The notes beneath the pieces were generated by a model. That model was not told the origin of the DNA, did not search any database, and saw only the letters and a program-made list of their open reading frames with translations. A program made the translations under genes and the position numbers. Shown here piece after piece: positions 1 to 16,136 of a DNA stretch of 64,000 nucleotides. Source of the stretch: Candidatus Zhuqueibacterota bacterium (GTDB lineage: Bacteria > Zhuqueibacterota > Zhuqueibacteria > Residuimicrobiales > Krinioviventaceae); NCBI GenBank assembly GCA_034505495.1, contig JAPDQV010000001.1, positions 145,892-209,891 on the forward strand, written 5' to 3'. Each line of letters opens with the position of its first letter. The first letter of the stretch is position 1.

Positions 1-2469
1 CAAACGACGTTTGATTTAAACGGTGAGCGTCTCTTGGACGGCCGCGGCAAGTCCTTGCCGCTCAGCGTAATGACTCGAATGAGGTTGGATTTTTGCCATC
101 AAAGGTTGGAGATCGATTCGCTGGCTTTTGCAGTGCAGGATGTTTCATGGTTCAGTCTGTCGATGGTAGTGGACAGTCTGCTCGGCATGCCGACTTTAAC
201 GGGATACCTGCTTCACGGCGCCGTTCCTTTGCAGCAGTTGGTCGACATTGCATCTCTAATTTTCCCAAAGGGCAACATTCCAGACCTCTTTCTTCACAAT
301 CCCAAGGCGGTCGTTGCAATCGACAGCTTGACGTTCAGGGGCAAGTTTGGTGAAGAACAGGCGGCGCTGGACTGGACGGCTTCCTTATCGTTGAAAGATG
401 CCGGAGTGACGGCCGATCGTGGAAATCTTTTCCTCGGAGGCCTGAATCTTACTGCGGTTATGCGGGGTGCCGTGCGAGAACAGACGATTGCGCAGGCTGA
501 TTTGCGGGTTTCTGCCGTCTATGATTCTGCTTCAGTCCGACTTCCGGAGTTGACGCCGCTTTATACAGGACCCTTGACTCTTGCTGCAGCCATGTCTATA
601 GGTCGAGACGGCTTTCCTGCCGACCTCGAGGCAAAGTTGACTGTTCGCAATTTGTTGGGGGCAAACGCAGCGGCATCCCTTCGGTTAAGCACCCCTCAGG
701 AACTGTCTCGCGCACACGGAAATGCGGTTATTCGAGTCGATGGTTTTGATTTGTCGCAACTTACCGGCGCTCAATGGGTTGGAAATGTTTCTGCTGAAGC
801 GGGTGTGGACATTCGCTCTCTTGATTCTTTGCGCTTCGAGGCAAAGGTTACCACGGATACGCTGACAGCCATTCAGGAAGGTCAGCTTTATGTTATGGCG
901 CCGATGACGGTCAAATCGGCTGCGCGCGGCGCCTATCATCTCGATGATAACCGCTTGGAGCTCAGAGCATTAGACTTTTCGCTCGATCCTTTCCTCCGCG
1001 CCGAGCTGCGAGCGGATTTATCACTTCAAGATTCGTCTGCGGTTTTACATCAATTTTCTGTGGCAATGGACCACGCGGCTCTTTTCGAAAAGCTGCCGAA
1101 CGCCCTGAATGAACAAATTCCGGGTGCCGGCCTAAGTGGCCGAACATCGTTTGAGGCAGGCGGCCGATTCAAGTTGTCGCCCGATCTGTTGCCGAAAGAA
1201 TTCGAAGTAAAGGCTGTGCTGCAGTCACGAGCAGATTTATCGCTACCCGCGCAGGGTGTAAAAGTCAAAGACCTTTTTGCCGAAGGCGAGCTCGTTGCGG
1301 ATTCCCGACGCGGAGGATTCATGCAGTTTGCCGTCGCACTGGACACAACGCGCTTCCTATTGCCGAATCCTCTCTCGTTTCGAGACAATCGCCTGCTGAT
1401 TCGGCTGTCGATGCCGAATCTCTCCACGATTAGTCTGGATACCGGATACGTTTCGATTCCCGATTTGCACACCTTGGGCGCCGTCAGCGGCCGTATTGAG
1501 AATTTAACCACGCATCCTTTTCTCTCGCTCAAGGCCTCGCTGCGTCAATCGGCTGAGGACACGTTGATTTTTGCCCCGGAGGTCTTTTTCAAAGGCATTA
1601 ATGAAATCGACCTGAATATTCGTGCAGATTCCAGTCATGCGGTTTTGAATGCATCGGTTCGGACCAAGGATCTCAGCGTCTACATGCCGAACGACATTCG
1701 CATCGATCGTTTGAATGCCGACCTTGCCTTTTTACAGGAATTTGATTTCGTAAATCCATCGCGTTTGGGGAGGTCTCCTGCAGTTGTGCGCACGCCATCG
1801 GACGGACTTGTCGATTACCTTCTCTATCGCAATTATTACCAAAGCTACCCCAATAAAAGCCGCCTCAGCATTAGACGAATTCAGATCGGCTCTTATCAGG
1901 TCGAGAATGTGCTGTCGGATATTTTTCTTGGCAACGGTAGGCTCGAAATCCCCTACTTTGCATTGGATGCCTACGGCGGCAATATTGCCGGTCAATTTTC
2001 GCTTTCCGCCGGAGAGAAGGATCCTTTGGACGCTTCTTACAAATTGACGGCTCATATTTCTTCCATCAATTCGTCGCTGTTGCTGCCGTCTGCCGCTTCC
2101 GAGAAAAGCAATATTACCGCACATGCCGAGTTGCGCGGCCGCGGGTTGGATATTAATAAGGGCATCGATTTGGACGGCTACTTTAATATCTCGGAGATCG
2201 AGTCCAAGGTGGCCGATAATCTTTTGCGTTCTCTGGATCCGGAAGGAAAGGATTCGGGAATCCGCAGTACGCGGTTGCTTATCAACCGCGGATTCAAACC
2301 CAAGCTTTTTCGCTTTGAGATTCGGCATGGGTTCTGTTATCCGGCAGTTTATTTTCAGCAGCCTTGGTATTTTCCGGTTCGTCTGATCGGCGGCGGCATT
2401 GAGCTGAGCCGCATACCGATCGTCACCCTGCTCAAACTCAATCCCAATTTAGCACGGAGTTTCAAATGA
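1..2469 (+). CDS. AsmA-like / YdbH-like large envelope protein (5' end lies upstream of window)
   Basis: Frame is open from nt 1 (no stop before the listed TTG at 34); >811 aa, repetitive beta-rich sequence without recognizable enzyme motifs; stop overlaps start of downstream YnbE/YdbL-like lipoprotein gene (ATGA at 2466-2469), mirroring the E. coli ydbH-ynbE-ydbL gene order. Confidence 0.4.
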   Translation, partial: QTTFDLNGERLLDGRGKSLPLSVMTRMRLDFCHQRLEIDSLAFAVQDVSWFSLSMVVDSLLGMPTLTGYLLHGAVPLQQLVDIASLIFPKGNIPDLFLHNPKAVVAIDSLTFRGKFGEEQAALDWTASLSLKDAGVTADRGNLFLGGLNLTAVMRGAVREQTIAQADLRVSAVYDSASVRLPELTPLYTGPLTLAAAMSIGRDGFPADLEAKLTVRNLLGANAAASLRLSTPQELSRAHGNAVIRVDGFDLSQLTGAQWVGNVSAEAGVDIRSLDSLRFEAKVTTDTLTAIQEGQLYVMAPMTVKSAARGAYHLDDNRLELRALDFSLDPFLRAELRADLSLQDSSAVLHQFSVAMDHAALFEKLPNALNEQIPGAGLSGRTSFEAGGRFKLSPDLLPKEFEVKAVLQSRADLSLPAQGVKVKDLFAEGELVADSRRGGFMQFAVALDTTRFLLPNPLSFRDNRLLIRLSMPNLSTISLDTGYVSIPDLHTLGAVSGRIENLTTHPFLSLKASLRQSAEDTLIFAPEVFFKGINEIDLNIRADSSHAVLNASVRTKDLSVYMPNDIRIDRLNADLAFLQEFDFVNPSRLGRSPAVVRTPSDGLVDYLLYRNYYQSYPNKSRLSIRRIQIGSYQVENVLSDIFLGNGRLEIPYFALDAYGGNIAGQFSLSAGEKDPLDASYKLTAHISSINSSLLLPSAASEKSNITAHAELRGRGLDINKGIDLDGYFNISEIESKVADNLLRSLDPEGKDSGIRSTRLLINRGFKPKLFRFEIRHGFCYPAVYFQQPWYFPVRLIGGGIELSRIPIVTLLKLNPNLARSFK

Positions 2470-3008
2470 CAAGAGCTTTTTGCCTTATCGTTTTGTTTAG
2501 CCTGTGCGCGGCCTGCAGCATCAAAACGCCGGAAATTACGCTCACTGGTGAAAAGACGGCGCTGGAAAATCAGATCATCGGTTCGTTCGAACAGTTGAAC
2601 CAACAGGATTATTTGACGACCTCGGTGCGGACGGCATTATCGGATGAGGCGGTGACCGGCAAAACCGAATCAGTGATCCAGGCTCTGCAGAACCAACAGT
2701 TCATTCAGGACGAAATTGATGAACTCAAACGTGATAAAGTCATCGGTGAAAACAATTCCGGATATCTGGAAATATTGGGGAACGAAAAATATCAAAAAGA
2801 TCCGTTGTATCGGAAACAGGTGGATCGATTGGTGGAAGAGGAAAACAACAATCGACGGATAATTTATCAAAAAGCGGCGATGAGTGCGGAGTGGAGCACC
2901 TCCACGGCTTCCGCATTGGCAAAGCTTCAACAAGAAAAGGCCGCGCCGGGAACCATGATCCAGCTGGAAAGCGGCGAATGGATCGAAAAACCCAGGCCGA
3001 AAAAATGA
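2466..3008 (+). CDS. lipoprotein, YnbE-like N-terminus fused to YdbL-like (DUF1318) domain
   Basis: Lipoprotein signal MTRAFCLIVLFSLCAAC with lipobox; C-terminal region with GYLE-type motif and overall resemblance to small periplasmic YdbL/DUF1318 proteins; translationally coupled to upstream and downstream genes. Confidence 0.45.
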   Translation: MTRAFCLIVLFSLCAACSIKTPEITLTGEKTALENQIIGSFEQLNQQDYLTTSVRTALSDEAVTGKTESVIQALQNQQFIQDEIDELKRDKVIGENNSGYLEILGNEKYQKDPLYRKQVDRLVEEENNNRRIIYQKAAMSAEWSTSTASALAKLQQEKAAPGTMIQLESGEWIEKPRPKK

Positions 3009-6000
3009 TGCAGCGATTTACTGTTATTTTCATTTTTACCTTTTTGCTGTCAGGGGCTGTTTGGTCTGAACAAACAAACGGAGGTGCAAAGGGTCCGGTG
3101 GAAGAGGTCTATCAGGTGACCAGCCATCCGGAAGCCGACTTGGCGCCGCGCGTTTCAACGGACGGGAAATGGCTTGCCTATGTCAATCGGCAGAGCGGCA
3201 ATTACGATATTTATATTAAAAATTTACAGACGGGAAGAAGCCGCCGTCTGACCGATCACGAAGCGGACGACTATCACCCGGTTTGGGATAAAAAAAATCG
3301 TTATCTGATCTTTGTCTCGCAGCGAAGCGACGCCAAAGGCGACCTTTTTCGCCTCAATCTGCGTAATGTACGCGGCGAGTTGATCGCCAAAGGCAAACCG
3401 GAACGGCTGACGACCTATATGGGGTTCGACGGCCTGCCGACCATTTCTGAATATGATGAACACATCGCCTGGGTTTCCGATCGGACAGGCCGACCGGAAA
3501 TCTGGCTGATGACTAAGCGGGGCCAGGCGATTCGTCAATTGACGCACGGCGGAGCAACACATCCGGCCTGGAGTCCCAAACAGTCCTATTTGGCTTTTAC
3601 CAGTTTTCGTCAAGACGGCAGCAACGGCGATATCTGGCTCATCAATCTCTATGCGCCGCGCGAGTGGATCGAGGTGAGGACGCCGCTGGACAGCCTTGAG
3701 CGTCCGATGTGGCCTGTAACACGCGGTGAAGCCGCTGACGGCTTTCCAACTTGGTCCCCTGATGCCAAGACGATTCTTTTTTGCCGAAGTGATCACGACG
3801 ATAACGGCGACGGGCTGATCACTCCCTCTGATCGCTCGGTAATTTGGGCTGTCGACGTTTCGCATCTGCCGCAGGACCATCCTTCTTCCTTGAATCCTTC
3901 TTATCGCCTCTACCGCGAAACGTTCGATGAACGAATCGTTCACCGTGCCTGCCCGATTGTATCGGCTAAATACAATGCCGCGCAGCCTGAATACGGTATG
4001 GACGGCCGCATTTATTTTTCGTCCGAAATCAAAGGCAATTTTGACATCTTTTCACTGCCGGACAGCCTGCTGCATGGTCATCCGCCGTCTATCGATGACA
4101 TGCCTCCGCTGCCTAACGGACTGGCTGCCAAGGATTTGTCGATCTTTATTGATGAGCCGCCGGTGTGGAACGAAAGGCAACGGCGTCAGCTCTATGATCG
4201 AATTTATACCCTGCAAAGGATCATGGACAGTCCTCAGGCCGATGCGGAACAAATTGCCGGTGCTGCCTACGAGATCGCCGTATGTTCGCTGCTGTTGGGA
4301 GATTCGCTGCGCTGCGTGCGTCATCTCGATTTTATTCTCGCCGATTATCCTGCCTCCGAGGCGGCTCCATTTGCCGAGCTTTTGCGGACCAGGGTTTCCG
4401 AGGTACGCAAAGAAAATGAGGCGCAGAAACTGCGACTTTTGGAACAGGAGATCCTTCGCCTTCAGGCCGGCGCTGCACCGAGCCGTCGATTCGCCGCCGA
4501 ATCAGAGCTGCTCCTTGGTGCTCTTTATGAACGACAAGAAAGATTTGAAGATGCAGAAAAGGCTTATCGGCGGGAAACGGAAAAGGCGCAGGCTTTTCCG
4601 GATCTTGTCGGTGAGGCCCTGCTTCGTCTCGGACGTTTGCAAAAAACCGAAGGCAAATACGGTGACGCAATGGCCTCTTTTTTGTCGGCCATGAAAAACG
4701 GCGGCAAACCGGAAAAGCATGCCCAAGCACGCAGTGAACTGCTCGAAATGTTCACCCTCGGTGCTGCCGATGATGCAACGCTGCTCTCGCGCTATAAAAT
4801 GGTGATCCGCCGGTTTTTTGCCCTCGATGTTTTCGTCATTGAGCCGTTTTTGCGAATCGCGGAATTGCATGTGCGAAACGGCAGGCTGCAGGAAGCATTG
4901 GATCTCTATGACTTTCTCCAGGCCCAGTTTGCCGATTTGACCGACGAAGCCTTTGACATTCGCTTAGGACGGGCGCAGGTGCTCTATCGGCTGGGAGATT
5001 TGCAGCAGGCGGCAACCCTCTTGAGCGAAACGGCCGCACTTTATCGCCAAAATCGGCCCAAATTGGCCAAGCAGGCCGAAACGCAATTGACCGATATGCT
5101 CTACCACTCGGCTTTAGACCTGATGACGACTAATCAATACGGTCAAGCGGCCGCAAGGTTGAAAAAGGTGCTGGAAATCGATCCGCATCATTTGCCGGCG
5201 CATCAGAGCTACATCGAATGCGCATTTTTGCTCAATCAAATCGATCAGGTGTTGACGGAATATACTGAAGCCGTCCGGAATCATCCCGAAGATAACATTC
5301 TTCTCTACGCTCAGGGATTGGCTTATTCCTATAAAGGTGCCTCGATCTATCCGAATGGTTGTGAAACTTGGGTGACCAGTGCGGAGGCTTTGGAGCAATC
5401 GAATCAAATTCTCTACAAAGCGCTGGCCTTGGATTACAATCTAATCGATGCCTACCTGCTGTTGAGTTTCAATTCCGAACTATTGGAATCTTTTCAGAAT
5501 CGGCGACAGCGGGAAGCCAAAAGTTTTGCGCAAAAGGCTTTCGGTACAATCACGGCGCCGTTGGTTTGGCTTTATCACACAGTCACCTTTTACGAAGAAA
5601 CTAAACCGCCGAGATATTATGAAAGTGCCATTCAGGAGCTCACCCAGGCGATGGCGCTCAACGACGAAGAGCTCTATCCACGGCGCGAGGCGCTTCTGGC
5701 GCTCAATATGGCCAACAATTATTACAGCCTGGGCGAATTCGGGTTCCGCAAGGCTTATGAGTACTATCACACTTTTTTAAAGTATGACTCGACTTTTGCC
5801 GGTATGCCGCACGAGGCGTTAATCAAAGAACGGATGGGGCACTGTGCCATCTTTGTCAACGATCAGCTGCGGGGACCCAACTACCTCAAGCGGGCTATCG
5901 AGTTGTATGGTAAATTGAACAATCAGGAACGTCTTCTGCTTAATCTCAAACGGCTCGCTTTGCTCTATGAGGTCGGGGAAAATCATAGCGAGGCCTTACG

Positions 6001-9000
6001 GTATTATTCAGCAGCCGCGGAGATGGAAGAACGGCTCGGGCGCTATGACGGTCTGTTGCGCAGCCGGCGCAGCGCCGCTTTGCATTACTATGCTTTGGGA
6101 CGATATGAGGAAGCGGTTAGGTCTGCTGAGGAGGCTTTGAGCATGCTCGAAAGCGGCCAGGTCCCGCGAAAAAAGAGTAAACCCATTTATCTTCAAATCG
6201 GATTGCTCGATCTTTACGCCCCCATTCCTTTCGATCTCCGCAAGGTCGGTGCCAAATCGACCATCGATATTTCGACTGAAGAAGAGGAAGCTTTTCTCTA
6301 TACGATTCTTGCTAAAGTTTTTATCGAAAATAAAGATTTCGATCGCGCCATCGAATTCTATCAGAAAAAGTTCGACCTTTATGAGCGGCGCCACGATTAC
6401 GACGCCCAGGCTGTTTTTCAAAACAACATGGGCTATCTCTATTTTCTCAAGGGTGATTATGACAACGCCTGGCGCATGTTCACCAATTCTTATTGGTGGT
6501 GCGTGCGCACCAAATACGTTTATGGCCAGCTGCTGAATTTGGAAAATGCAGCGCAAGTGGTCCTTACGATCGCAAATGAAGAAGATCCGAAACGAAAAGT
6601 TAATTTTGCCAAATATCATCGCTGGATAATCGGCAAGCTGACCGATCTTTTACGAGTCACCCGAGGCGATGAGGCCTTTTATTCGGCGATTCATGCCCGT
6701 TATCGTCTCCTTCTAGCGGATTTACTGATTGTTCCCTATGCCGAATTGCCGAAGAATCTGGAGGCGCGATGGTCGTTTCTTGAAGCGGTCGGCAATGCCG
6801 AAAAGCATCTGATGGAAGCGGAGCGGCTCAGCCGACAGTATCGTCTGCCGCGTGAAGAGTGCGCGGCGCTTTATCGACGGGCAGAGTTGCGGCTCCAAAC
6901 CGGCGACTCGACGGCGGTTTCTTTGTATCTTAGAGCCAAAGAGACGGCGGAGCAGCATCAACTGCGCGATCTTTTGCGACAAATCTATACGGCGCTCGGC
7001 AGTGAAAGCATGAGATTATCTGAAAGAACAGATAACTCTTTGGCGGATGCATCCTTTTATTTGCAGGAGGCCGTGCGATTGACCGAACGGGAGGCTCCTT
7101 CGAACCTGCTTTTATCGGCTGTGCAGGTGCGGCGTCTCATCGAAGCGCCTTATCGCCGTCTCATTCAGCTGCAGGCGGAACGCGGCGATGCGGAGAATGC
7201 GCTGCTGACGGCGGAAAGGATGCGCAGCCAAGTTTTTCGGCAATTGATGCGACGAGACCGTCCGAGTCTCGGGGGAGAAACGGAGCAACGACTTTTTCAT
7301 AGAGCGGACTCTTTGGCCGAGGAGCTGCGCCGTCAAACTGAGCAGGCGAATCGAACTCGTACGAACGACGCAGTCTTGGCTGAAGAGATCGAAAGGTTGC
7401 AGCGTGAATACGAGGCGGCCTTGACTGTCGTTAGGCGCAAAGCGCCGCAGCTTGAGCCGTTTTTACGGCCGGTCAACATTTCGTTGGCTGAACTGCAAAG
7501 CAGACTTGAGCCCAAAGAAGGGCTGCTTACAATTCTTTATCTGCAGGATCAGCTGCTGTTTGGTTGGATAACACGCCGAAACATCGAATTGTACCGACCG
7601 AATTTAGCTGCTTCAAACTTTCGAAAACTTTTGGTTCGTTTACGGGATGGTTTCGAAGCCGATTCGTTGGACGCGGCCGCGGCGGACAGCATTAAAACGG
7701 CCTTTTCCATTTTACCCCTTCAAGGGATCAAACGTTTATACATTCTTCCTGAGCACAAGGATCTGCCTTTTCCTTGGAGTGCATTGTTTCATCTTGTCGA
7801 TTTTCCAACTGTTGCAGGGGTTATTTCTGATTTATCGGCCTTTTTCCCGCCTGGAAAAACAGATCGCTTACCCTCGTTAACGATCTTGAGTTCCGATTCT
7901 CTGCTGCTGCAGGCTCTGCAGAAGCGGGACAGCCTCGTCGTCTCGCCGCTGCCGTCCAAGGCGTCTGACCGCATTGACGCAGCGGTGGTACATTTGCGCG
8001 GAAACAGCCTCGCTCAACCGGTCTTTCCGACCAACAGCACGTTTTCCGCAGCTTGGGCGGGGAAGTGGTCGCCGCTCGATTTACTGCGTGGAAAAGCTTC
8101 TTTAACCCTGCTCTGCTTGGATATTGATAAGGGAGAGTGGACGGCTGAAGCGCTGAGTGCTTGGGAGCGAGCGGCTTATTTCAATGGAACCCGCCGGCTT
8201 TTTGTCTCCTTATGGCCGACAGCCGACAGCAGTCGAACCTTTCTGCAAAGCTGTTTTCGTTATTTGCAAAACAACTTGCCCTCAGCGGCTTTGGACACAA
8301 CCCAGGAGCAAATGGTCGAAAAAGGTGTTCCGTTGCGTTTTTGGGCGGGATTTCAAATCTACGGCGTCGAATCAGGTTCGACTGCAGAAGCGCCGATGAG
8401 CAGCGATGCAGATGAGTGGGTTGCGCGGGGTGATGAGGCGCGGCGGGCACGAAACTGGCGGCATGCTGTGGAATGCTACCTCGAAGCTTTAGAGAGAACG
8501 CAAGCAGAGCGGGAAAAGAATGAGTCGATAGCCGAAAGACTCTTGGCAAGCGCCTTGAGCGGCGGTCTGTGGACCGAGGCGGTTGATGTTGTGCGCCGTC
8601 GAGCATCTTATTACTCCCAAAAGAACTTGCGCCGTGAACAGGCGGCAATGCAGAGGCTTATGGCGGTCGTTTATCATCAGCAGGGGGCGACGGCCGGCGA
8701 GGCGCAGGCGTTAGCCGAATATAGACGGCTTTGCCGCACTTTTTCCATTCCTTACGACGATGCGACGGCTTTTTTCGAAACGGCTCAGCTTTACGCAGAC
8801 AACGGCGACTATGAGCAGGCCGCGCTTCTTTCCATTAAAGCGGCCGAACGGTACGGCAAACTAAACCGCACGCGAAATCAGATTGAAAGCTTACTGAGGG
8901 CCGCAGAATATTTATTCGAAGAGACAGGTTATGTCGATTTGGCGATCGATTTGGCGGAATCGGCTGAACAGCTGAGTAAAAATAACCAGCAAATGGATTT

Positions 9001-11167
9001 GCAGGCAAGGGCTTTGACTTTTTTAGGGCGCTGCCGCTTTGGAGTTGACGCAAATAAAGCACGACAATCCTTGCAATCGGCTTTAAAGCTTGCTGAGAAA
9101 GGGGGATTCAAGCGCCTTGCGGCGGAAATTCGCTTGTCGATGGCGGAGCTGCATCTCAGGACCTTCGAACCCATGGCTGCCGAGCGATTTCTTGTCCAAA
9201 TCGAGGTCGCCGAGCTGGATCCGGCTCTCAAAATAGCGCACCATCTGCTTATTGCACGACAAGCGAGAGCGGTAGGCGATACTGCGAAAGCTGCAGCTCT
9301 TTTGCGCAAAGCTTTTCTCGAGGCGGAATGGTCGGATGATGCGGATTTGGAACAACGGGTAGGCGAAGCTGTTGCCGTTCATGCCGCGTTATCCGGCAAA
9401 GCGGCTAAGGCGGCAGAAGAGATGAAACGATCCGTTCGCCTTGAAAGCCGCCCCTTCAACCGTTCGGCAATACGCCGACGTACAGCCTTGGCTTTATTCT
9501 TATATCTGGCAGGAAAAACCGAAGAGGCGAAGAGCGAGGCTAAAGAAAATATCGGTGCTTGCGATCGTCCCTATTTATATGATTTTCGCTCTGCCAATAA
9601 CTGGCTGCTGAGCTGTCTCGAAGAGGATGCGGCGCTTTCCAGGCAATTTGCAGAAGCAGCGGCATCTGCAGCGCAACGCATCGGTCGCTCGGATCTCCTC
9701 TTTCGCGCCTATTATCGCTTGGCACAACTAGCGGAAGAAGATGATAGGGCTCATTTCTATTTAGTCGCAGCCGACTCGGCGCTCAGCCTTGCCCCGCCGC
9801 AAAGCGAGTACGACGATTATTTCCTAGGGCTGCTGCCGCTGGAGCGACGGTTTTATCAAACCGCGGTCAAACTATGTGTGCGCAGCAATCGGTTGCACGA
9901 TGCGCTTGTTTTCGCTGATCAGCACCGAAATATCGATTTTATTCACGCCGCAAGGCTGCGGCTTTTTTCCTTCAAGGCTGACGACCGGCAGCAGGCCGAG
10001 CACTATTTCCGGATCAAAGAGCGATTATCAAGACTCTACTCAAGCGCAATGTTTCAATGCGACCCGCGTTCCATCTTTGCCGCAAAAGATTCCCTAATCG
10101 TGAAACGGCAAATCTCTGCCCTGCAGGACTCTCTGAGGTCGCTTAAAGAAACCTGCCGTTTTCAAGATCCTCAATTGGGTCCGCTGCTTTTCGGGTTGAG
10201 CGGCTGCCGTGAGGCAAGCCCGCTCGCCGATGGTCGGCTGCTGATCTCGCTTTACCATGATGATGAAACCCTCTACATTTGGCGGCGCCGCGAGGATCGC
10301 CTCGACGTAGACCTGCAGCCCTATGACGCGGTGCAGACAAAGAATGTCCTAAAAACGCTGCAGCAACTAGACCTCAACGCCGATGCCGGAGATTTTACCC
10401 GTCTTCTTTATGCAACGGTGTTCGAACCTTGGCAGCAGGACGTCGAACAAGCGCGCAGAATCGTTATCGTTCCCTATTCCCAATGGCACTATGTGCCGTG
10501 GGCTATGTTGAATGACAAGAGCGGTACCTTCCTCGGCCTCGAGAAACCAATTTCACTCGCGGCATGGTCGTTCGAAGCGGAAAAAAAGGAATCCTTAACA
10601 GCTGCCTGGAATTCAAAACGGCTTATTCTGGTTGGAAAACCACCCTCGTCGCAACAAGATCCCTTTTATAAGCCCCTTGCCCGAGCCTTGGAACGGTATG
10701 CTGAAGAGTCAATTGTGCTTTTGCCGGATCGACTCCAGACCGCTTCACTTGGCGGATCGGTACTTGTTGCTGAGAGTTTGGATGAGAATTCACAGGAAGC
10801 CTGGCTTTATCAGCCGGAAAGCGAGTCAGGTTATCGCAATATGGCCTGGCCGGATTGGATGCAGCAGAGCGAACCGCCCTATGCCGTCGTTTTTTTGCGG
10901 ACCCGTAATTCGGAGCCGCAAGAAGGCACCGAAACGGCCGTTGCAGGCGCTGTCGCTTCATATCTCGGCTCCGCGCTGCTTCTGCCCTTGCCGTTAAACG
11001 CCGATGCGTTTGCTGCCGCCATTTTGGTCAAGCGTTACGTAAAGATGCTCAGCGAAGGACTTTCCCCTTCGGAAGCCCTCAATTCGGCACAACGAGCCGT
11101 TTACGACCGGCTTGATCGTCGTCCGAAAGCTTGGGGCTGTTTTGTTCTCTATGATGTTGGTCGATAA
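3005..11167 (+). CDS. giant (about 2720 aa) secreted PD40 beta-propeller / TPR / CHAT-domain protein with two CHAT (caspase-like) domains
   Basis: In-frame ATG at 3005 overlapping upstream stop (TGA 3006-3008); signal peptide MMQRFTVIFIFTFLLSGAVWS; N-terminal TolB-like PD40 repeats (YHPVWDKKNRYLIFVS, THPAWSPKQSYLAFTS, DGFPTWSPDAKTILF); long TPR-rich middle; CHAT signatures (see domain features). Confidence 0.8.
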   Translation: MMQRFTVIFIFTFLLSGAVWSEQTNGGAKGPVEEVYQVTSHPEADLAPRVSTDGKWLAYVNRQSGNYDIYIKNLQTGRSRRLTDHEADDYHPVWDKKNRYLIFVSQRSDAKGDLFRLNLRNVRGELIAKGKPERLTTYMGFDGLPTISEYDEHIAWVSDRTGRPEIWLMTKRGQAIRQLTHGGATHPAWSPKQSYLAFTSFRQDGSNGDIWLINLYAPREWIEVRTPLDSLERPMWPVTRGEAADGFPTWSPDAKTILFCRSDHDDNGDGLITPSDRSVIWAVDVSHLPQDHPSSLNPSYRLYRETFDERIVHRACPIVSAKYNAAQPEYGMDGRIYFSSEIKGNFDIFSLPDSLLHGHPPSIDDMPPLPNGLAAKDLSIFIDEPPVWNERQRRQLYDRIYTLQRIMDSPQADAEQIAGAAYEIAVCSLLLGDSLRCVRHLDFILADYPASEAAPFAELLRTRVSEVRKENEAQKLRLLEQEILRLQAGAAPSRRFAAESELLLGALYERQERFEDAEKAYRRETEKAQAFPDLVGEALLRLGRLQKTEGKYGDAMASFLSAMKNGGKPEKHAQARSELLEMFTLGAADDATLLSRYKMVIRRFFALDVFVIEPFLRIAELHVRNGRLQEALDLYDFLQAQFADLTDEAFDIRLGRAQVLYRLGDLQQAATLLSETAALYRQNRPKLAKQAETQLTDMLYHSALDLMTTNQYGQAAARLKKVLEIDPHHLPAHQSYIECAFLLNQIDQVLTEYTEAVRNHPEDNILLYAQGLAYSYKGASIYPNGCETWVTSAEALEQSNQILYKALALDYNLIDAYLLLSFNSELLESFQNRRQREAKSFAQKAFGTITAPLVWLYHTVTFYEETKPPRYYESAIQELTQAMALNDEELYPRREALLALNMANNYYSLGEFGFRKAYEYYHTFLKYDSTFAGMPHEALIKERMGHCAIFVNDQLRGPNYLKRAIELYGKLNNQERLLLNLKRLALLYEVGENHSEALRYYSAAAEMEERLGRYDGLLRSRRSAALHYYALGRYEEAVRSAEEALSMLESGQVPRKKSKPIYLQIGLLDLYAPIPFDLRKVGAKSTIDISTEEEEAFLYTILAKVFIENKDFDRAIEFYQKKFDLYERRHDYDAQAVFQNNMGYLYFLKGDYDNAWRMFTNSYWWCVRTKYVYGQLLNLENAAQVVLTIANEEDPKRKVNFAKYHRWIIGKLTDLLRVTRGDEAFYSAIHARYRLLLADLLIVPYAELPKNLEARWSFLEAVGNAEKHLMEAERLSRQYRLPREECAALYRRAELRLQTGDSTAVSLYLRAKETAEQHQLRDLLRQIYTALGSESMRLSERTDNSLADASFYLQEAVRLTEREAPSNLLLSAVQVRRLIEAPYRRLIQLQAERGDAENALLTAERMRSQVFRQLMRRDRPSLGGETEQRLFHRADSLAEELRRQTEQANRTRTNDAVLAEEIERLQREYEAALTVVRRKAPQLEPFLRPVNISLAELQSRLEPKEGLLTILYLQDQLLFGWITRRNIELYRPNLAASNFRKLLVRLRDGFEADSLDAAAADSIKTAFSILPLQGIKRLYILPEHKDLPFPWSALFHLVDFPTVAGVISDLSAFFPPGKTDRLPSLTILSSDSLLLQALQKRDSLVVSPLPSKASDRIDAAVVHLRGNSLAQPVFPTNSTFSAAWAGKWSPLDLLRGKASLTLLCLDIDKGEWTAEALSAWERAAYFNGTRRLFVSLWPTADSSRTFLQSCFRYLQNNLPSAALDTTQEQMVEKGVPLRFWAGFQIYGVESGSTAEAPMSSDADEWVARGDEARRARNWRHAVECYLEALERTQAEREKNESIAERLLASALSGGLWTEAVDVVRRRASYYSQKNLRREQAAMQRLMAVVYHQQGATAGEAQALAEYRRLCRTFSIPYDDATAFFETAQLYADNGDYEQAALLSIKAAERYGKLNRTRNQIESLLRAAEYLFEETGYVDLAIDLAESAEQLSKNNQQMDLQARALTFLGRCRFGVDANKARQSLQSALKLAEKGGFKRLAAEIRLSMAELHLRTFEPMAAERFLVQIEVAELDPALKIAHHLLIARQARAVGDTAKAAALLRKAFLEAEWSDDADLEQRVGEAVAVHAALSGKAAKAAEEMKRSVRLESRPFNRSAIRRRTALALFLYLAGKTEEAKSEAKENIGACDRPYLYDFRSANNWLLSCLEEDAALSRQFAEAAASAAQRIGRSDLLFRAYYRLAQLAEEDDRAHFYLVAADSALSLAPPQSEYDDYFLGLLPLERRFYQTAVKLCVRSNRLHDALVFADQHRNIDFIHAARLRLFSFKADDRQQAEHYFRIKERLSRLYSSAMFQCDPRSIFAAKDSLIVKRQISALQDSLRSLKETCRFQDPQLGPLLFGLSGCREASPLADGRLLISLYHDDETLYIWRRREDRLDVDLQPYDAVQTKNVLKTLQQLDLNADAGDFTRLLYATVFEPWQQDVEQARRIVIVPYSQWHYVPWAMLNDKSGTFLGLEKPISLAAWSFEAEKKESLTAAWNSKRLILVGKPPSSQQDPFYKPLARALERYAEESIVLLPDRLQTASLGGSVLVAESLDENSQEAWLYQPESESGYRNMAWPDWMQQSEPPYAVVFLRTRNSEPQEGTETAVAGAVASYLGSALLLPLPLNADAFAAAILVKRYVKMLSEGLSPSEALNSAQRAVYDRLDRRPKAWGCFVLYDVGR
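3110..3850 (+). other. PD40/TolB-like beta-propeller repeat region of giant protein
   Basis: Three or more repeats of the W-S-P-D/hydrophobic PD40 pattern separated by about 45 aa, immediately after signal peptide. Confidence 0.6.
7700..8370 (+). other. CHAT domain 1 (apparently catalytically intact caspase-like protease domain)
   Basis: LYILPEHKDLPFPWSALF (substrate-groove motif), AAVVHLRGNS (catalytic His), LTLLCLDIDKGEW (catalytic Cys), C-terminal RRLFVSLWPTAD...RFWAGFQIYGV matching CHAT consensus ...slW.v.D....WA.F.l.G. Confidence 0.65.
10450..11164 (+). other. CHAT domain 2 (degenerate, His and Cys positions substituted)
   Basis: RIVIVPYSQWHYVPWAML ... AWGCFVLYDVGR matches CHAT N- and C-terminal motifs, but the His position reads VLVAESLD and the Cys position reads AVVFLRTRNSEP (no Cys). 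Confidence 0.5.
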
Positions 11168-11193
11168 GTTTTTCGTTCATTTAAGGATTTGCC

Positions 11194-12930
11194 GTGAAAC
11201 CGAGAGTTATTGGCCTGCTTTTGCTGTTTTTCCGACTTGCGGAGGCCCAAACGCCGCTGCTTCAGATAACCTTTCCGGCTCAAAACGATACGGTAAACGG
11301 TAACCGAGTTCGAATTTCCGGATTTACCGAAAGCGGAGCCGTTGTTTCGATCAATGGCAAAAAAGTACCGTTAACACCTCAGGCTTCTTTTGTTGCCCGC
11401 GTTGATTTGTCTGAAGGATTGAACACAATTCTCGTCGAAGCACAAAAAAACGGAGCCGTATCCGTTCAGAACCTGTCGGTTTATCGTCCGCCGTCGACCA
11501 AGTCCCTGCCTGAAAAGCCCACGGCGATCGACTTGGACGGGTGTGCGCCGCGCCGCGATGTTTGGCTAAGCGTCGGTGATTATCTCGATGTTCAGCTTAA
11601 AGGCAGCCCTAACGGTGTTGCCGCCTTTTCGATCGACCGCTATCTCAAGCACCTGCCGATGGTAGAAATCGATACCGCTTTGACTGACGGAATTTTCGGC
11701 ATATATCGCGGAGCAATCCGTATTAGTTCCGATCTCCCTATTGATAAACCGCTGGCCATCGAGGGCGAGCTGCTGGGAGCCGACGGGCGCAAAAAAAAGC
11801 TGGTGATCGGACGCTTGTTCGTGCTTTCGCCGCATGTGCCGCTGATCGGCCGGACCAAGCAAACGGTGACTGTTCACAGCGCTGCGGAGGGGTATGTTCC
11901 TTGGTTGCGTCTTCCGGCCGGAATCGATTTGCACATCGTCGGCAAGCGGAATAACCGCTATCAAGTTCGTTTTTCAGCAACGAAGCAAGGTTATATCGAA
12001 GAGGATGGAATCGAGTTGTTGCCGGCGGGTACGCCCCTGCCGTCTTTAGCTGTCGGCGCTCCAAACTTGGTTCAGGATAAAAATTGGATCCGGCTGATTT
12101 ATCCGGCCGACCGGCTGCCGGCCTTTTGGATCGATCAAGATCCTGTCCTTAATCGTCTCGACTTGTATCTCTTCGGAGCTCGGCAGGCTTCGCACTGGGT
12201 GACGTTTCCCAACGGAGAAAGCGACCTTGCTGCGCTGGTCTTTGGACAGGAAGACAATGCATTTCGAACTACGGTCGTTTTGCGGACCAAAAGGGTATGG
12301 GGATATAAAGCAGAGTATCGCGACGGCGCCGTCGTTTTTTCCATACGCAGGCCGCCGGTAATCAATTCGCAGAATCCGCTGCAGGGGTTGGTGATCGCCG
12401 TCGACGCCGGACACGGCGGTCAGGATCGAGGCGCCGTGAGCCCCCTCGGCAGATTGGAAAAAGAGATCAACCTTATGTGGGCCGAAAGCCTTGCCGCCAA
12501 ACTGAGGAGCAACGGCGCAACCGTGGTCATGACGCGACGGGAAGACATCGAGGTCTCTTTGGCAGAACGCATACGTCTGGCCGAGGAAGCCGAGGCTCAT
12601 ATCTTTCTTTCCCTGCACAACAACAGCGTGCCGGCGACCGGCAATCCGGCTGCCGAGGGCACGAGCGTTTATTTCACCACGCCGCAAAGTCGTGACCTGG
12701 CCTGGGCTCTTTATCCTTACCTGGTCAAACTGGGTCTGGCGCCCTTTGGCCGCGTCTATAATGCCTACTATGTAACGCAATCAACGGCGTTTTTGAGTGT
12801 GCTCATCGAAGGAGGATTTCTCAGTAACCCAAAAGAGGAACTCAAGCTGGCGGATCCTGTTTTTATCGACAGGTTATCGCAGGCAATTTGTGAGGGATTA
12901 GCGGATTTTTTGTCGACTGGAGAAAAATGA
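11194..12930 (+). CDS. N-acetylmuramoyl-L-alanine amidase (Amidase_3, AmiC-like) with N-terminal Ig-like/unknown domains
   Basis: GTG start; signal peptide; C-terminal Amidase_3 motifs VIAVDAGHGGQDRGA ... SLHNNS ... EGGFLSN; 26 nt downstream of giant CHAT gene. Confidence 0.85.
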   Translation: MKPRVIGLLLLFFRLAEAQTPLLQITFPAQNDTVNGNRVRISGFTESGAVVSINGKKVPLTPQASFVARVDLSEGLNTILVEAQKNGAVSVQNLSVYRPPSTKSLPEKPTAIDLDGCAPRRDVWLSVGDYLDVQLKGSPNGVAAFSIDRYLKHLPMVEIDTALTDGIFGIYRGAIRISSDLPIDKPLAIEGELLGADGRKKKLVIGRLFVLSPHVPLIGRTKQTVTVHSAAEGYVPWLRLPAGIDLHIVGKRNNRYQVRFSATKQGYIEEDGIELLPAGTPLPSLAVGAPNLVQDKNWIRLIYPADRLPAFWIDQDPVLNRLDLYLFGARQASHWVTFPNGESDLAALVFGQEDNAFRTTVVLRTKRVWGYKAEYRDGAVVFSIRRPPVINSQNPLQGLVIAVDAGHGGQDRGAVSPLGRLEKEINLMWAESLAAKLRSNGATVVMTRREDIEVSLAERIRLAEEAEAHIFLSLHNNSVPATGNPAAEGTSVYFTTPQSRDLAWALYPYLVKLGLAPFGRVYNAYYVTQSTAFLSVLIEGGFLSNPKEELKLADPVFIDRLSQAICEGLADFLSTGEK

Positions 12931-13677: not shown

Positions 13678-14115
13678 TCAACCTTTGAAAATCGTAATTC
13701 TGACACGCGAAGAGCCCGGTAAAAGAATGGGAATGTTGACACCCGATTGCACTTTGAAGGGATTGGGAAACGGTTCGAGAAGTTCGGGATATTGCCAAAA
13801 ACCGGGCTCAAAGTGCGACTGATTGTTTTCTCCCGGGCTTCCGCCCTTAATGGCTGTTATGATTTCCTGTTGCTGCCAGTCTTTGATTTCCAACACGACT
13901 ACATAATCGCCGGGTTCAACGTACTGTTTGTCCTCATTTTTCCCGTCCCAATAAAATACATATTTTCCGCCGTCAATTAAATAATCATCGATCAATAGAA
14001 TTACTTTTTGCGCCGATACCGGATTTTTGCACGACACCAAAAGGCAAAAAACCGGCCAGATCAGAACGCGTAAGAGTGTTCGGGACGGCTTTATTCCGAT
14101 GTCTTTGCGAGCCAT
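13678..14115 (-). CDS. lipoprotein with FlgD Ig-like / T9SS-like C-terminal domain
   Basis: Lipoprotein signal ...VFCLLVSC; YVFYWDGKNEDKQYVEPGDYVVVLEI followed by PFPNPFK...RVRITIF; start overlaps 3' end of S9 peptidase gene. Confidence 0.45.
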   Translation of the reverse strand: MARKDIGIKPSRTLLRVLIWPVFCLLVSCKNPVSAQKVILLIDDYLIDGGKYVFYWDGKNEDKQYVEPGDYVVVLEIKDWQQQEIITAIKGGSPGENNQSHFEPGFWQYPELLEPFPNPFKVQSGVNIPILLPGSSRVRITIFKG

Positions 14116-16136
14116 TTTTCCAACCAGGCAAATACTTCGTTCCACCACAACCGGGCGTTTTGCGGTTTGGTCACAAAATGCGTCTCATCAGGAAAACAAA
14201 TCAGTTTGGACGGCACGCCGTACCTCTGCAGGGCGGTGAACATTTGCAGGCCCTGCGTCACCGGAACACGAAAGTCGAGTTCTCCATGGATGACCAGCGT
14301 CGGCGTTCGAAACTTGTTCAGGTTCGCCGCATAGGTAGAAGGCGACCAGCGCCGGTAAAGATCGGGATTTTCGTATGGGATACCGCCGAACTCCCATTCC
14401 GGAAACCACAGCTCATCGGTGGCGCCGTATTTGCTGACGAGATCAAAAACACCCGCATGGCTGACCAAAGCTTTGAAGCGGTCGGTCTGTGTAGCGATCC
14501 AATTAATCATGTAGCCGCCGTAGCTTGCTCCCGCCGCGGCAATGCGCTCCTTATCGATAAAGCTGTAACGCTCGACCACATAATCGATGCCCGCCAGAAT
14601 ATCTTGATAAGGCCCGCCGCCCCAATCGCGACTGACGGCGTCGCACCACTCCTGACCGTAGCCTTTGGAACCGCGTATGTTCAAAGCAACCACGACAAAG
14701 CCGCGCGATGCAAATAGTGACGTGTTCCAGCGATAGTGAAAATCATCGCCCCACATTCCCTGCGGCCCCCCGTGGATGAGGCAAAGCAGCGGATATTTTC
14801 GGGAAGTATCGAAAGCCGGCGGCTTTAGTAGGAAGCCGTGAACCGTCTTGCCGTCAAAAGAAGGATAACTCAGATCTTCCAATGGGGTTAAATCCAATTG
14901 ATCGAGCAAAGGCTGATTGGTAAAAGTGAGTTGTGTCGGCGATTTGTTGCGCAGATCATAGCCGAAAATTTCCTCCGGCATAACGGCGGATTGGCGTTTG
15001 AAGAAGAGGCGGCGACCGTTCGGGCTAATTGTTAAATGACGATTGACGTGATCGCCGATGATTTTCGTGATGCGCCCGGATTTCAATTCCAGGCGATAAA
15101 TAGATTCGCGGCCGAAATCCTCGGCGGTAAAAAAGAGGGCCGAGTTATCGGGAGACCAAATCACCTGGCCGACCGAGCGATCGAAAGAATCCGTCAGCGA
15201 TACGCTGCTTCCGGTTCGACGATCATAAAGCATCAGCTCGTACTCGTCGGCTTCGAAGCCTGGGCGCCGCATGGCGCGGTAGGCAAGATAGCGACCGTCG
15301 GGAGAAAAGACCGGCTGATTATCGACCGCTGCGTTGGCGGCCGTCAGATTTTGTTGGATGCCGCTTTCCAAATCGAGTAGAAAGACGTCATTGTTGGTGT
15401 TGACGGCCGGCTCCGCCGTTGCATTGCCGACAAAGGCGATCGTTTTTCCGTCAGGTGAGAAACAAAAGTCGGGATCACCGCCCAAATCAAGCGGCGGCAC
15501 GTCCCAATCGCCCGGCGTGAGATCGCGGAGGTTGGCGCCGTCGGCATTGCAGAGGAACAGATGCGATCGTCTGCCGTCGCGCCAATGATTCCAAGGTCGA
15601 AACAAGAGGCGGTCGGCAATGTGCGCCTTAACAAGCGATTCCTCTCTCACGCGCTCCATTGCCGCGCTTTCTTCTATATTTGCGGCTTTTGGAAAAATTG
15701 AAAGGATCAGCGCCAGATGTTTGCCGTCAGGAGACCAGGCAAAATCCTCAATATCCAAAGGCAGGCGGGTCAACTGCACTGCTTCGCCGCCGGAAAGGGG
15801 CAAAAGGAAGATCTGCCGCGAGCAGTTGCGGGAAGAGAGAAAGGCTACCGCGCTGCCGTCCGGTTTCCAATGCGGCGTACTGCTGCCCGCAGCATGAGTG
15901 GTAAGCTGACGCGTCTCGCCGGTTGCCGTGTCGAGGAGCCAAAGGTCGGTACGGCCGCTGTTTTTTTCCATGTCGTAAGCGGTCATTTCGTAGACCATTC
16001 GGCTGCCGTCCGGGGAAAGTTCGATTCGGCCGATGCGCTTCATTGCCCAAAGGTCTTCAACGGTCATCGGGCGTTTGGCCGGCAGCGAAGCAGCCGAAAG
16101 GCTCACGAGCAGGAAAAAAGATATCAGCATGCGCAT
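14091..16136 (-). CDS. S9 family serine peptidase (prolyl oligopeptidase/acylaminoacyl-peptidase type) with N-terminal PD40 propeller
   Basis: Signal peptide; PD40 repeats; catalytic GASYGGYM (GxSxG) and alpha/beta hydrolase C-terminus. Confidence 0.85.
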   Translation of the reverse strand: MRMLISFFLLVSLSAASLPAKRPMTVEDLWAMKRIGRIELSPDGSRMVYEMTAYDMEKNSGRTDLWLLDTATGETRQLTTHAAGSSTPHWKPDGSAVAFLSSRNCSRQIFLLPLSGGEAVQLTRLPLDIEDFAWSPDGKHLALILSIFPKAANIEESAAMERVREESLVKAHIADRLLFRPWNHWRDGRRSHLFLCNADGANLRDLTPGDWDVPPLDLGGDPDFCFSPDGKTIAFVGNATAEPAVNTNNDVFLLDLESGIQQNLTAANAAVDNQPVFSPDGRYLAYRAMRRPGFEADEYELMLYDRRTGSSVSLTDSFDRSVGQVIWSPDNSALFFTAEDFGRESIYRLELKSGRITKIIGDHVNRHLTISPNGRRLFFKRQSAVMPEEIFGYDLRNKSPTQLTFTNQPLLDQLDLTPLEDLSYPSFDGKTVHGFLLKPPAFDTSRKYPLLCLIHGGPQGMWGDDFHYRWNTSLFASRGFVVVALNIRGSKGYGQEWCDAVSRDWGGGPYQDILAGIDYVVERYSFIDKERIAAAGASYGGYMINWIATQTDRFKALVSHAGVFDLVSKYGATDELWFPEWEFGGIPYENPDLYRRWSPSTYAANLNKFRTPTLVIHGELDFRVPVTQGLQMFTALQRYGVPSKLICFPDETHFVTKPQNARLWWNEVFAWLEKWLAKTSE

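Follow-up and report, generated by a model that had tools for sequence, protein, structure and literature searches.

Why should the genes for an AsmA-like protein, a lipoprotein, a giant protein with PD40, TPR and CHAT domains and an amidase lie packed head to tail on one bacterial strand? This arrangement opens the window, by which we mean the whole stretch of 64,000 nucleotides that was analysed (positions 145,892 to 209,891 of the forward strand of contig JAPDQV010000001.1, assembly GCA_034505495.1, Candidatus Zhuqueibacterota bacterium). The four large genes occupy positions 1-12930, all in the same direction:

1-2469, plus strand: gene for an AsmA-like (AsmA/DUF748-type) protein, its 3′ 822 codons, present as an open frame, with the homology taken from the full-length homologue P0001
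2466-3008, plus strand: gene for a lipoprotein of 180 aa, here called lipo-YdbL, from the translation; it begins with a signal peptide, and its Cys17 (codon 2514-2516) is invariant
3005-11167, plus strand: gene for a giant PD40/TPR/tandem-CHAT protein of 2720 aa, from the open reading frame (ORF) and Pfam, with a signal peptide that has no lipobox
11194-12930, plus strand: gene for an exported N-acetylmuramoyl-L-alanine amidase of 578 aa, from the Pfam match to Amidase_3 and a signal peptide

The answer that we prefer, and to which we give a probability of about one half, is that the cluster is a vertically inherited envelope module of KSB1/Zhuqueibacterota and allied lineages. It would consist of an AsmA-like bridge, lipo-YdbL as the outer-membrane partner of this bridge, and the giant protein as a periplasmic scaffold or regulator. 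The closest public relative is a hot-spring metagenome-assembled genome of the candidate division KSB1 (Zhuqueibacterota). In the literature on DUF1318, on AsmA-like proteins with DUF748 and on Zhuqueibacterota, we found no paper describing this cluster.

The four genes are joined very tightly. The first gene (ORF1, frame 1) is already open at base 1, its 5′ part being cut off by the window edge, and ends with the TGA at 2467-2469; this stop overlaps the ATG of the lipoprotein gene (2466-2468) as ATGA (2466-2469). A second ATGA at 3005-3008 combines the stop of the lipoprotein gene with an ATG in frame with the giant gene, which ends with the TAA at 11165-11167. The amidase gene then starts with a GTG at 11194, 26 nt past this stop, and runs to 12930. 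The initial annotation had described both overlaps and the gap and had taken the four co-directional genes to be translationally coupled; when the sequence was re-read, all these junctions were present as described. The start of the giant gene is ambiguous, as there are in-frame ATGs at 2978, 3005 and 3008 and an in-frame GTG at 2891. In the near-identical contig L001, the gene caller placed the start at the counterpart of ATG 2978, so that the overlap with the lipoprotein gene is 31 nt and not 4 nt. Any of the candidate starts leaves the two genes overlapping or abutting. Four-base overlaps are the commonest junction within operons and are, taken alone, unremarkable. It is because the synteny is conserved, and not because of the overlaps alone, that the gene arrangement goes beyond chance. 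In the relatives, the intergenic spacing is similarly tight, with -35 to +39 nt in seven locus contexts. A scan of the region for promoters and terminators gave none above the shuffled expectation, the Rfam scan gave no family and the tandem-repeat scan no repeat. Alternative-frame ORFs within the genes had no Pfam match, and no credible antisense genes were found there. The GC content is uniform across the region. Signal peptides are present on three of the products, and for the AsmA-like protein the full-length homologue shows a membrane anchor at the N-terminus; all four products are predicted to be envelope proteins.

We scanned the GTDB species representatives and, from 155 relatives, kept 80 loci, of which 71 are testable on both sides; these loci and the seven locus contexts were analysed with tblastn and jackhmmer. 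These loci were picked by similarity to the lipoprotein and belong mostly to one phylum. Among the 71 two-sided loci, the lipoprotein gene is followed by the giant gene in 62, and an AsmA-like gene is located upstream in 45. The individual combinations are as follows:

AsmA-like gene adjacent, giant gene present: 42 of 71 loci
AsmA-like gene one or two genes away, giant gene present: 2 of 71 loci
AsmA-like gene one or two genes away, giant gene absent: 1 of 71 loci
AsmA-like gene absent, giant gene present: 18 of 71 loci
AsmA-like gene absent, giant gene absent: 8 of 71 loci

No locus has the AsmA-like gene directly adjacent to the lipoprotein gene without the giant gene. For the reverse test, the C-terminal domain served as query, since the alignment of the whole AsmA-like protein has no stretch conserved enough for a metagenome scan. 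In the 12 metagenome loci of this test, lipo-YdbL is the next gene in 12/12 and the giant gene is found in 11/11 testable loci. The trio persists while its flanks vary: the upstream context differs in L008, and the genes after the giant gene in relatives include the amidase, NTP-transferases, CstA and others. Genes are inserted between the cluster members in some loci; judged by eye they are heterogeneous and do not belong to the core. The initial annotation had raised co-conservation of all four genes, and this holds for three of them, the amidase being limited to one close clade.

The likely meaning of the trio is best approached from Escherichia coli. Here the DUF1318 protein YdbL partners the AsmA-like protein YdbH together with YnbE (PMC11126948). 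On its own, YdbH does not reach across the periplasm, and the lipoprotein YnbE completes it by strand augmentation. The C-terminal helix of YnbE is in turn bound by YdbL, which DegP degrades when it is free (PMC11126948, PMC13464000). In the window, lipo-YdbL comprises two parts behind its signal peptide:

2514-2654, plus strand: N-module of lipo-YdbL, aa 17-63, from conservation and an AlphaFold2 (AF2) model
2706-2990, plus strand: YdbL/DUF1318 domain of lipo-YdbL, aa 81-175, from Pfam PF07027, hhalign and Foldseek

By its profile matches and its predicted fold, the C-terminal half of lipo-YdbL is a true YdbL/DUF1318 domain. The similarity to DUF1318 that had been proposed for residues 80-180 is indeed found, at aa 81-175, where PF07027 scores 49.4 bits against a cutoff of 27 (E 6.7e-13); the same family is matched by 43/43 lipo-YdbL homologues, which are 179-227 aa long. 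The lipo-YdbL profile gives a probability of 92% against E. coli YdbL in hhalign, and the percentages from hhalign given below are probabilities as well. The AF2 model has a pLDDT (the per-residue confidence score) above 90 over the DUF1318 domain, and the sole significant match that Foldseek finds in the Protein Data Bank is the crystal structure of E. coli YdbL (28oj; E 2e-4, target TM-score 0.81, root-mean-square deviation 2.2 Å). Invariant in 29 sequences are G94, E95, G99, E126, N127, R130, W172 and K175. E95, N127, R130, W172 and K175 align with E35, N58, R61, W104 and K107 of E. coli YdbL, which are required for its function (De'Ath et al., PMC13464000). Residues 1-16 form the signal peptide, and Cys17, which comes after a hydrophobic stretch, is invariant in 29 homologues; the residue preceding it is often atypical in relatives (H, N or Q). 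Unlike the ordinary soluble periplasmic YdbL, lipo-YdbL would therefore be a lipid-anchored protein.

The N-module consists of an extended segment (C-SIKTPEITLTG), an acidic helix at aa 26-51 and the invariant residues S53 and R55, followed by a variable linker. The best-conserved stretch of lipo-YdbL reads C-SIKTPEITLTGEKTALENQIIG...TTSxR. In the AF2 model, residues 17-25 are coil and residues 26-51 a helix of moderate confidence, and the linker beyond is disordered. The initial annotation had regarded the lipoprotein as a fusion of YnbE and YdbL, of which the YnbE half finds no support. The Pfam scan of aa 1-80 has no match even at E<=10, and hhalign of the N-module against YnbE gives 28% for the sequences with their signal peptides and 0.5% for the mature sequences. 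We also searched 1.84 billion cluster representatives with the N-module profile and found 245 clusters. The inspected full-length matches (170-255 aa) were all joined to DUF1318, the inspected short matches looked truncated or frameshifted, and there was no clear stand-alone N-module among them. As far as these profiles tell, lipo-YdbL is a distinct long, lipid-anchored YdbL subfamily and not a demonstrable YnbE-YdbL fusion; that it does the job of YnbE could be the case. The same profile has nine matches in P0176, a protein of 789 aa with the repeat AALEGQVLGIY..., which is almost certainly a low-complexity false positive.

The second member of the proposed pairing is the product of ORF1, which has one domain of its own kind:

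~1867-2466, plus strand: conserved C-terminal domain of the AsmA-like protein, from the conservation profile

Profile comparisons place this protein among the AsmA-like and not among the YdbH-like proteins. The full-length homologue P0001 (1087 aa, 93% identical) matches Pfam AsmA (PF05170) with 30.6 bits against a cutoff of 29.8, DUF748 with E 4e-9, and YhdP as well. The fragment in the window, which is without the N-terminus, has sub-threshold matches to AsmA (E 0.0068) and YhdP (E 0.013). Among 34 ORF1 orthologues from related loci, DUF748 is matched by 33, AsmA by 25 (best E 7e-21) and YhdP by 17, and the Pfam families of YdbH or TamB by none (0/34). When the ORF1 family profile is compared by hhalign with the E. 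coli paralogues, the N-terminus of AsmA gives 93%, YhdP 26%, TamB 9% and YdbH 0.3%, the last value being that for the whole protein; for the C-terminal domain against YdbH it is 0.4%. ORF1 had initially been called a YdbH-like AsmA protein. Membership in the AsmA superfamily (Pfam AsmA/DUF748/YhdP) stands, through P0001 and the orthologues, and the assignment to YdbH has to be given up.

P0001 starts with a basic N-terminus followed by the hydrophobic transmembrane helix RILLCVPIIIALCLLFIVGGAALYF, as read from the sequence, the window copy being without that part. The last ~200 aa form a family-specific domain, which is the best conserved stretch of the protein. A word-indexed homologue search with the ORF1 fragment had one hit among the matches listed, and the family-profile search gave, among the matches listed, distant TamB/AsmA proteins only, which match over the N-terminal 10-15%. 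The single-sequence AF2 model of P0001 has a mean pLDDT of 30.4, a value too low for its fold to carry any meaning. We consider the ORF1 product to be probably an inner-membrane-anchored lipid-bridge protein of the repeating-beta-groove type. Since a DUF1318 protein partners an AsmA-like protein in E. coli too (PMC11126948), the pairing recurs here with a different AsmA-like subfamily.

The third member, the giant protein, has no counterpart in the E. coli system. It can be divided into the following regions:

3092-4204, plus strand: TolB-like PD40 beta-propeller region, aa ~30-400, PD40 with E 3e-34 and four repeats
4472-6454, plus strand: TPR solenoid, aa ~490-1150, from multiple TPR families
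7202-8374, plus strand: CHAT-1, the first CHAT-like domain, aa ~1400-1790, from a partial Pfam CHAT match
10397-11164, plus strand: CHAT-2, the C-terminal CHAT domain, aa 2465-2720, Pfam CHAT with E 2.2e-16

The full-length orthologues that adjoin lipo-YdbL (n = 48) are 2594-2877 aa long. Their best-conserved core is at aa ~800-1000, inside the TPR solenoid, and a helical region lies between the solenoid and CHAT-1. The N-terminus scores 105 bits with the TolB family of NCBIfam, whose cutoff is 343; there are partial matches to E 3e-30, and only the PD40 repeats match. In relatives the giant also has matches to Tricorn_N/Tricorn_2nd. The TPRs have a partial and weak match to YbgF/CpoB, which is far below the family cutoff. 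The TPR core also holds an adjacent His-Cys pair (aa 946-947, positions 5840-5845), whose two residues are kept in 36/48 and 44/48 orthologues, the window included.

Both CHAT domains require comment. In CHAT-1, the Pfam CHAT match aligns aa 1713-1787 with profile positions 207-288, and among the 48 orthologues no His or Cys column reaches 60%, save an N-terminal His of the 'LHxLPF' type. From this alignment CHAT-1 is degenerate in every member, so that the giant family carries two CHAT domains in tandem, the first of them a pseudo-CHAT. CHAT-2 (PF12770) scores 60.6 bits against a cutoff of 24. Its motif columns hold the His (SCHG) in 40/48 and the Cys (SACETG) in 38/48 aligned orthologues, and they align, in a weak profile alignment, with ILCHGE/GACETD of the solved TPR-CHAT (Csx29) structures. 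In the window protein, VAESLD replaces SCHG.., VVFLRTR replaces SACETG, and there is no His or Cys nearby. The secreted CHAT protease of the initial annotation thus has neither the catalytic His nor the catalytic Cys; going by these residues, the giant of the window is a pseudoprotease and its CHAT-2 is catalytically dead in this genome. On a neighbour-joining tree of the giants, the dyad was lost at least two times, in the clade of the window and in L002/L009. Arg55, an invariant residue bordering the variable linker of lipo-YdbL, was considered as a cleavage site for a clan-CD CHAT protease and rejected as unsupported, since it is invariant also in the clades with a dead dyad.

A TPR array followed by a caspase-like CHAT domain (PF12770) is also the architecture of Csx29, and the HG and C motifs of the two align in most relatives. 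One could therefore think of a defence or conflict system in the envelope with a TPR-CHAT protease at its centre, comparable to Csx29/Craspase, and a surface conflict system had been suggested from the start. The weak alignment of the CHAT-2 profile to the Csx29 structures and a weak, sub-threshold match to HEPN_AbiV at aa 1917-1965 of the giant would fit such a role. PADLOC, however, finds no defence system in the cluster but only a generic TPR model (E 6e-5), and the products are all envelope proteins. Moreover, throughout the phylum the cluster keeps its place in the chromosome, with housekeeping genes around it, and neither mobile elements nor a shift in composition were seen there. For these reasons, that is, a non-specific PADLOC result, envelope products, a chromosomal locus that is stable across the phylum and a uniform GC content, a defence role is unlikely, and we rate it as very improbable indeed. 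The giant further differs from Csx29 in that it is exported, is about four times larger, carries tandem CHAT domains with the first degenerate and has no CRISPR context; its dyad is lost here, and yet the gene is kept full length.

How could the three core proteins act together? The identities of the domains, the loss of the dyad and the synteny counts are shown by the data; lipid transport, the binding partners and the regulatory role of the giant are inferred. We suggest that the first gene supplies a ~1090-aa AsmA-like protein anchored in the inner membrane. The second gene would supply an outer-membrane lipoprotein, whose YdbL half keeps the residues that E. coli YdbL uses to bind the helix of YnbE. 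The N-module, with its amphipathic extended segment after the lipid anchor and its acidic helix, might then provide the contact on the outer-membrane side, which is the role of YnbE in E. coli. It would stand in for YnbE by analogy of function and not by homology. A likely target of the N-module would be the highly conserved domain at the C-terminus of the AsmA-like protein. The giant, which is the most constant neighbour of lipo-YdbL, would bind lipo-YdbL and serve the complex as a scaffold or regulator. Proteolysis could be its means of action in most lineages, which would recall how DegP controls YdbL in E. coli. As the protease dyad is gone in this genome, the giant could here only bind or scaffold.

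This proposal has clear parallels in the YdbH-YnbE-YdbL system. In both cases an AsmA-like gene is followed by a gene for an outer-membrane lipoprotein and by a DUF1318/YdbL domain, and the genes overlap or abut; the fold of YdbL is conserved together with the residues that its function requires; and YdbL is linked to a protease, which is DegP in E. coli and the CHAT domain in most relatives here. The systems differ in the AsmA-like protein, which is here of the AsmA/DUF748 type with ~1090 aa as against 879 aa. Here there is neither a YnbE gene nor homology to YnbE, YdbL is lipid-anchored with a conserved N-module of ~60 aa and has an acidic and not a basic core, and the 2700-aa partner gene is without an E. 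coli counterpart. New relative to the E. coli theme are the other AsmA-like subfamily, the lipid-anchored YdbL with its new N-module, and the giant partner. With TamA-TamB, YhdP and AsmA the cluster shares an inner-membrane AsmA-like protein encoded beside a presumed outer-membrane partner, and the N-terminal AsmA/TamB_N/DUF748 similarity. It differs from TamA-TamB in that it has no DUF490 domain as at the C-terminus of TamB and no Omp85 partner, the C-terminal domain here being family-specific.

There are several points that speak against our proposal. The N-module is without detectable homology to YnbE. The fit of an acidic helix into a basic YdbL pocket, as in E. coli, was considered and rejected, since the DUF1318 core of lipo-YdbL is itself acidic: its net charge is -3.8, that of the N-module helix -2.7 and that of E. 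coli YdbL +3. About a quarter of the loci have the lipoprotein and giant genes as a pair but no AsmA-like gene next to them. The same is seen in the distant locus L092, where a long-form lipo-YdbL (P0185) comes after rpmH-rnpA-yidC-jag-trmE, with no AsmA-like gene upstream. As the pair is found without the AsmA-like gene, the primary partner of lipo-YdbL may be the giant and not the AsmA-like protein. Finally, the upstream order TrkH/TrkA - HSP20 - Lon - UDP-glucose pyrophosphorylase - AsmA-like gene recurs in many KSB1 loci (L002, L006, L007, L009 and the P0019 locus). Because this upstream synteny is conserved as well and the loci come mostly from one phylum, part of the linkage could be phylogenetic inertia.

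These points lead to the main rival explanation, in which lipo-YdbL and the giant make up a periplasmic module of their own. The pair would act as an outer-membrane-tethered protease/adaptor or as a tether similar to TolB/Pal/CpoB, with the YdbL domain binding a helix of the giant. Lipid transport would not be what the pair does, and the AsmA-like gene would merely be a frequent neighbour, co-regulated at most. We find this explanation doubtful on the whole, though it deserves to be taken seriously. The giant is indeed the steadier neighbour in the counts given above, the pair recurs without the AsmA-like gene in two clades besides L092, and in L092 the protein following lipo-YdbL is a PD40/TPR protein that is collinear with the giant over 819 residues. 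The N-module, too, is equally conserved in the loci that have no AsmA-like gene. Another distant member of the lipo-YdbL family (L091) stands alone. On the tree of the giant proteins, however, the loci without the AsmA-like gene form two nested clades, which suggests that they separated secondarily from an ancestral three-gene cluster and is consistent with relocation of a gene, not with independence. The pair, in turn, follows every sampled AsmA-like gene of this type (12/12) and is complete in 42/42 directly adjacent loci, the junctions are overlapping or nearly so, and the only YdbL that has been studied works on an AsmA-like bridge (PMC11126948, PMC13464000).

The similarity to the Tol-Pal system can be weighed in the same way. 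As in TolB/Pal/CpoB (YbgF), a periplasmic PD40 propeller protein is encoded beside an outer-membrane lipoprotein, and the partial matches of the giant's N-terminus and TPRs to TolB and YbgF/CpoB point in this direction. The scores are far under the equivalog cutoffs, though, the lipoprotein is YdbL-like and not OmpA-like as Pal is, there is no adjacent tolQRA, and propeller and TPRs are fused in one CHAT-bearing protein of 2720 aa. We prefer to see the pair as part of the three-gene envelope module with the AsmA-like bridge.

One may go a step further and picture lipo-YdbL and the giant as an unrecognised, phylum-conserved periplasmic machine that assembles, caps or proteolytically licenses the AsmA-like bridge from the inner to the outer membrane. 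We offer this as a speculative extension that is rather unlikely to hold in full. If it were true, it would be the first dedicated partner set described for an AsmA-like protein that is neither YdbH nor TamB. The ancestral role of YdbL would then have been to couple bridges to a giant scaffold or protease, and the small soluble YdbL of E. coli would be a reduced derivative. To our knowledge, partners of AsmA-like proteins are known only for TamB (TamA) and for YdbH (YnbE and YdbL).

The cluster bears on the open question of how AsmA-like proteins join the outer membrane and how such bridges are controlled. It offers a second, independent system, in a distant phylum, for probing the function of the YdbL domain, which is tied even more tightly to a 2,700-residue TolB/TPR/CHAT protein than to the AsmA-like protein. 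Control of such bridges by proteolysis or by a scaffold may be general. The lineages with a live and with a dead CHAT domain provide a natural comparison, to which the dead-CHAT lineages with an amidase add. Since the host organisms are uncultured, it is for structure prediction and heterologous tests that the cluster is of practical use.

The fourth gene of the window, coding for the amidase, does not belong to this core. Two domains can be located in its product:

within 11194-12930, plus strand: Glucodextran_B-like Ig (immunoglobulin) domain of the amidase, aa 21-88, Pfam 40.6 bits
12394-12903, plus strand: Amidase_3 domain of the amidase, aa 401-570, Pfam 133.5 bits

It had been described as an amidase of the AmiC type. 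That it is an Amidase_3 enzyme is borne out by the strong catalytic-domain match, and together with the signal peptide this is what it shares with AmiA/B/C and CwlD. The AmiC type is not: the protein scores 56.6 bits with the AmiC equivalog NF038267, whose cutoff is 700, it remains under every NCBIfam equivalog cutoff, and no AMIN domain was found by the Pfam and NCBIfam scans. It differs from these amidases also in the Glucodextran_B-like N-terminus and in ~300 uncharacterised residues between this domain and the Amidase_3 domain. An amidase gene after the giant gene is found only in the window, L011, L008/L025, L013, L014, L027, L093 and the P0019 locus, so that it is a lineage-specific late addition. 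All amidase-bearing loci in which CHAT-2 is readable are without the catalytic His and Cys. In L007 and in L002/L009 the dyad was lost and no amidase gained. As the amidase-bearing loci form one clade, the gain of the amidase and the loss of the dyad may be a single event rather than a functional replacement.

At this point the interpretation with which the locus was first presented can be judged as a whole. It saw an orthologue of YdbH-YnbE-YdbL, with YnbE and YdbL fused, that works with an active secreted CHAT protease and an amidase of the AmiC type in a coordinated remodelling of outer membrane and cell wall. The YdbL domain is real, the lipoprotein gene comes directly after the AsmA-like gene as YnbE does, the order of an extended segment and a helix after the lipid anchor resembles the strand-then-helix order of YnbE (PMC13464000), and an amidase gene does lie 26 nt downstream. 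Against these stand the missing similarity to YdbH and to YnbE, the lack of a clear stand-alone N-module, the absent CHAT dyad in the window protein and the narrow distribution of an amidase that falls short of AmiC. This interpretation is already refuted in part, and as a whole it is improbable; the envelope module with a non-YdbH bridge accounts better, in our view, for the genes found.

The surroundings of the cluster are of an ordinary kind. The downstream neighbours are housekeeping genes on the opposite strand, with a cytidylate-kinase-like gene, an S9 peptidase, PdxJ and others. The peptidase, an S9 prolyl-oligopeptidase with PD40 repeats (14091-16136, minus strand), lies 1.2 kb downstream and is not conserved near the cluster in relatives. 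Further on, positions 24760-63839 of the window hold a spore-photoproduct-lyase-like gene, NAD(P)HX repair, SufB, SufD and SufS, a UvrD-like helicase of 1057 aa with a long N-terminal extension, a PEGA-domain Ser/Thr kinase, PEP (phosphoenolpyruvate) carboxykinase and MetH.

Two minor observations concern the neighbourhood of lipo-YdbL in relatives. In one clade without the AsmA-like gene (L023, L038, L047 and L067), two small ORFs of ~130-160 aa recur upstream of lipo-YdbL. They were considered as ExbD/TolR and rejected by eye, as their motifs look like those of YtxH and of a DUF948-like membrane protein. In L054, an ORF of 452 aa (8539-9897) lies between the AsmA-like and the lipoprotein gene; with its weak DUF5686-like match and its aromatic C-terminus, it may code for an outer-membrane barrel.

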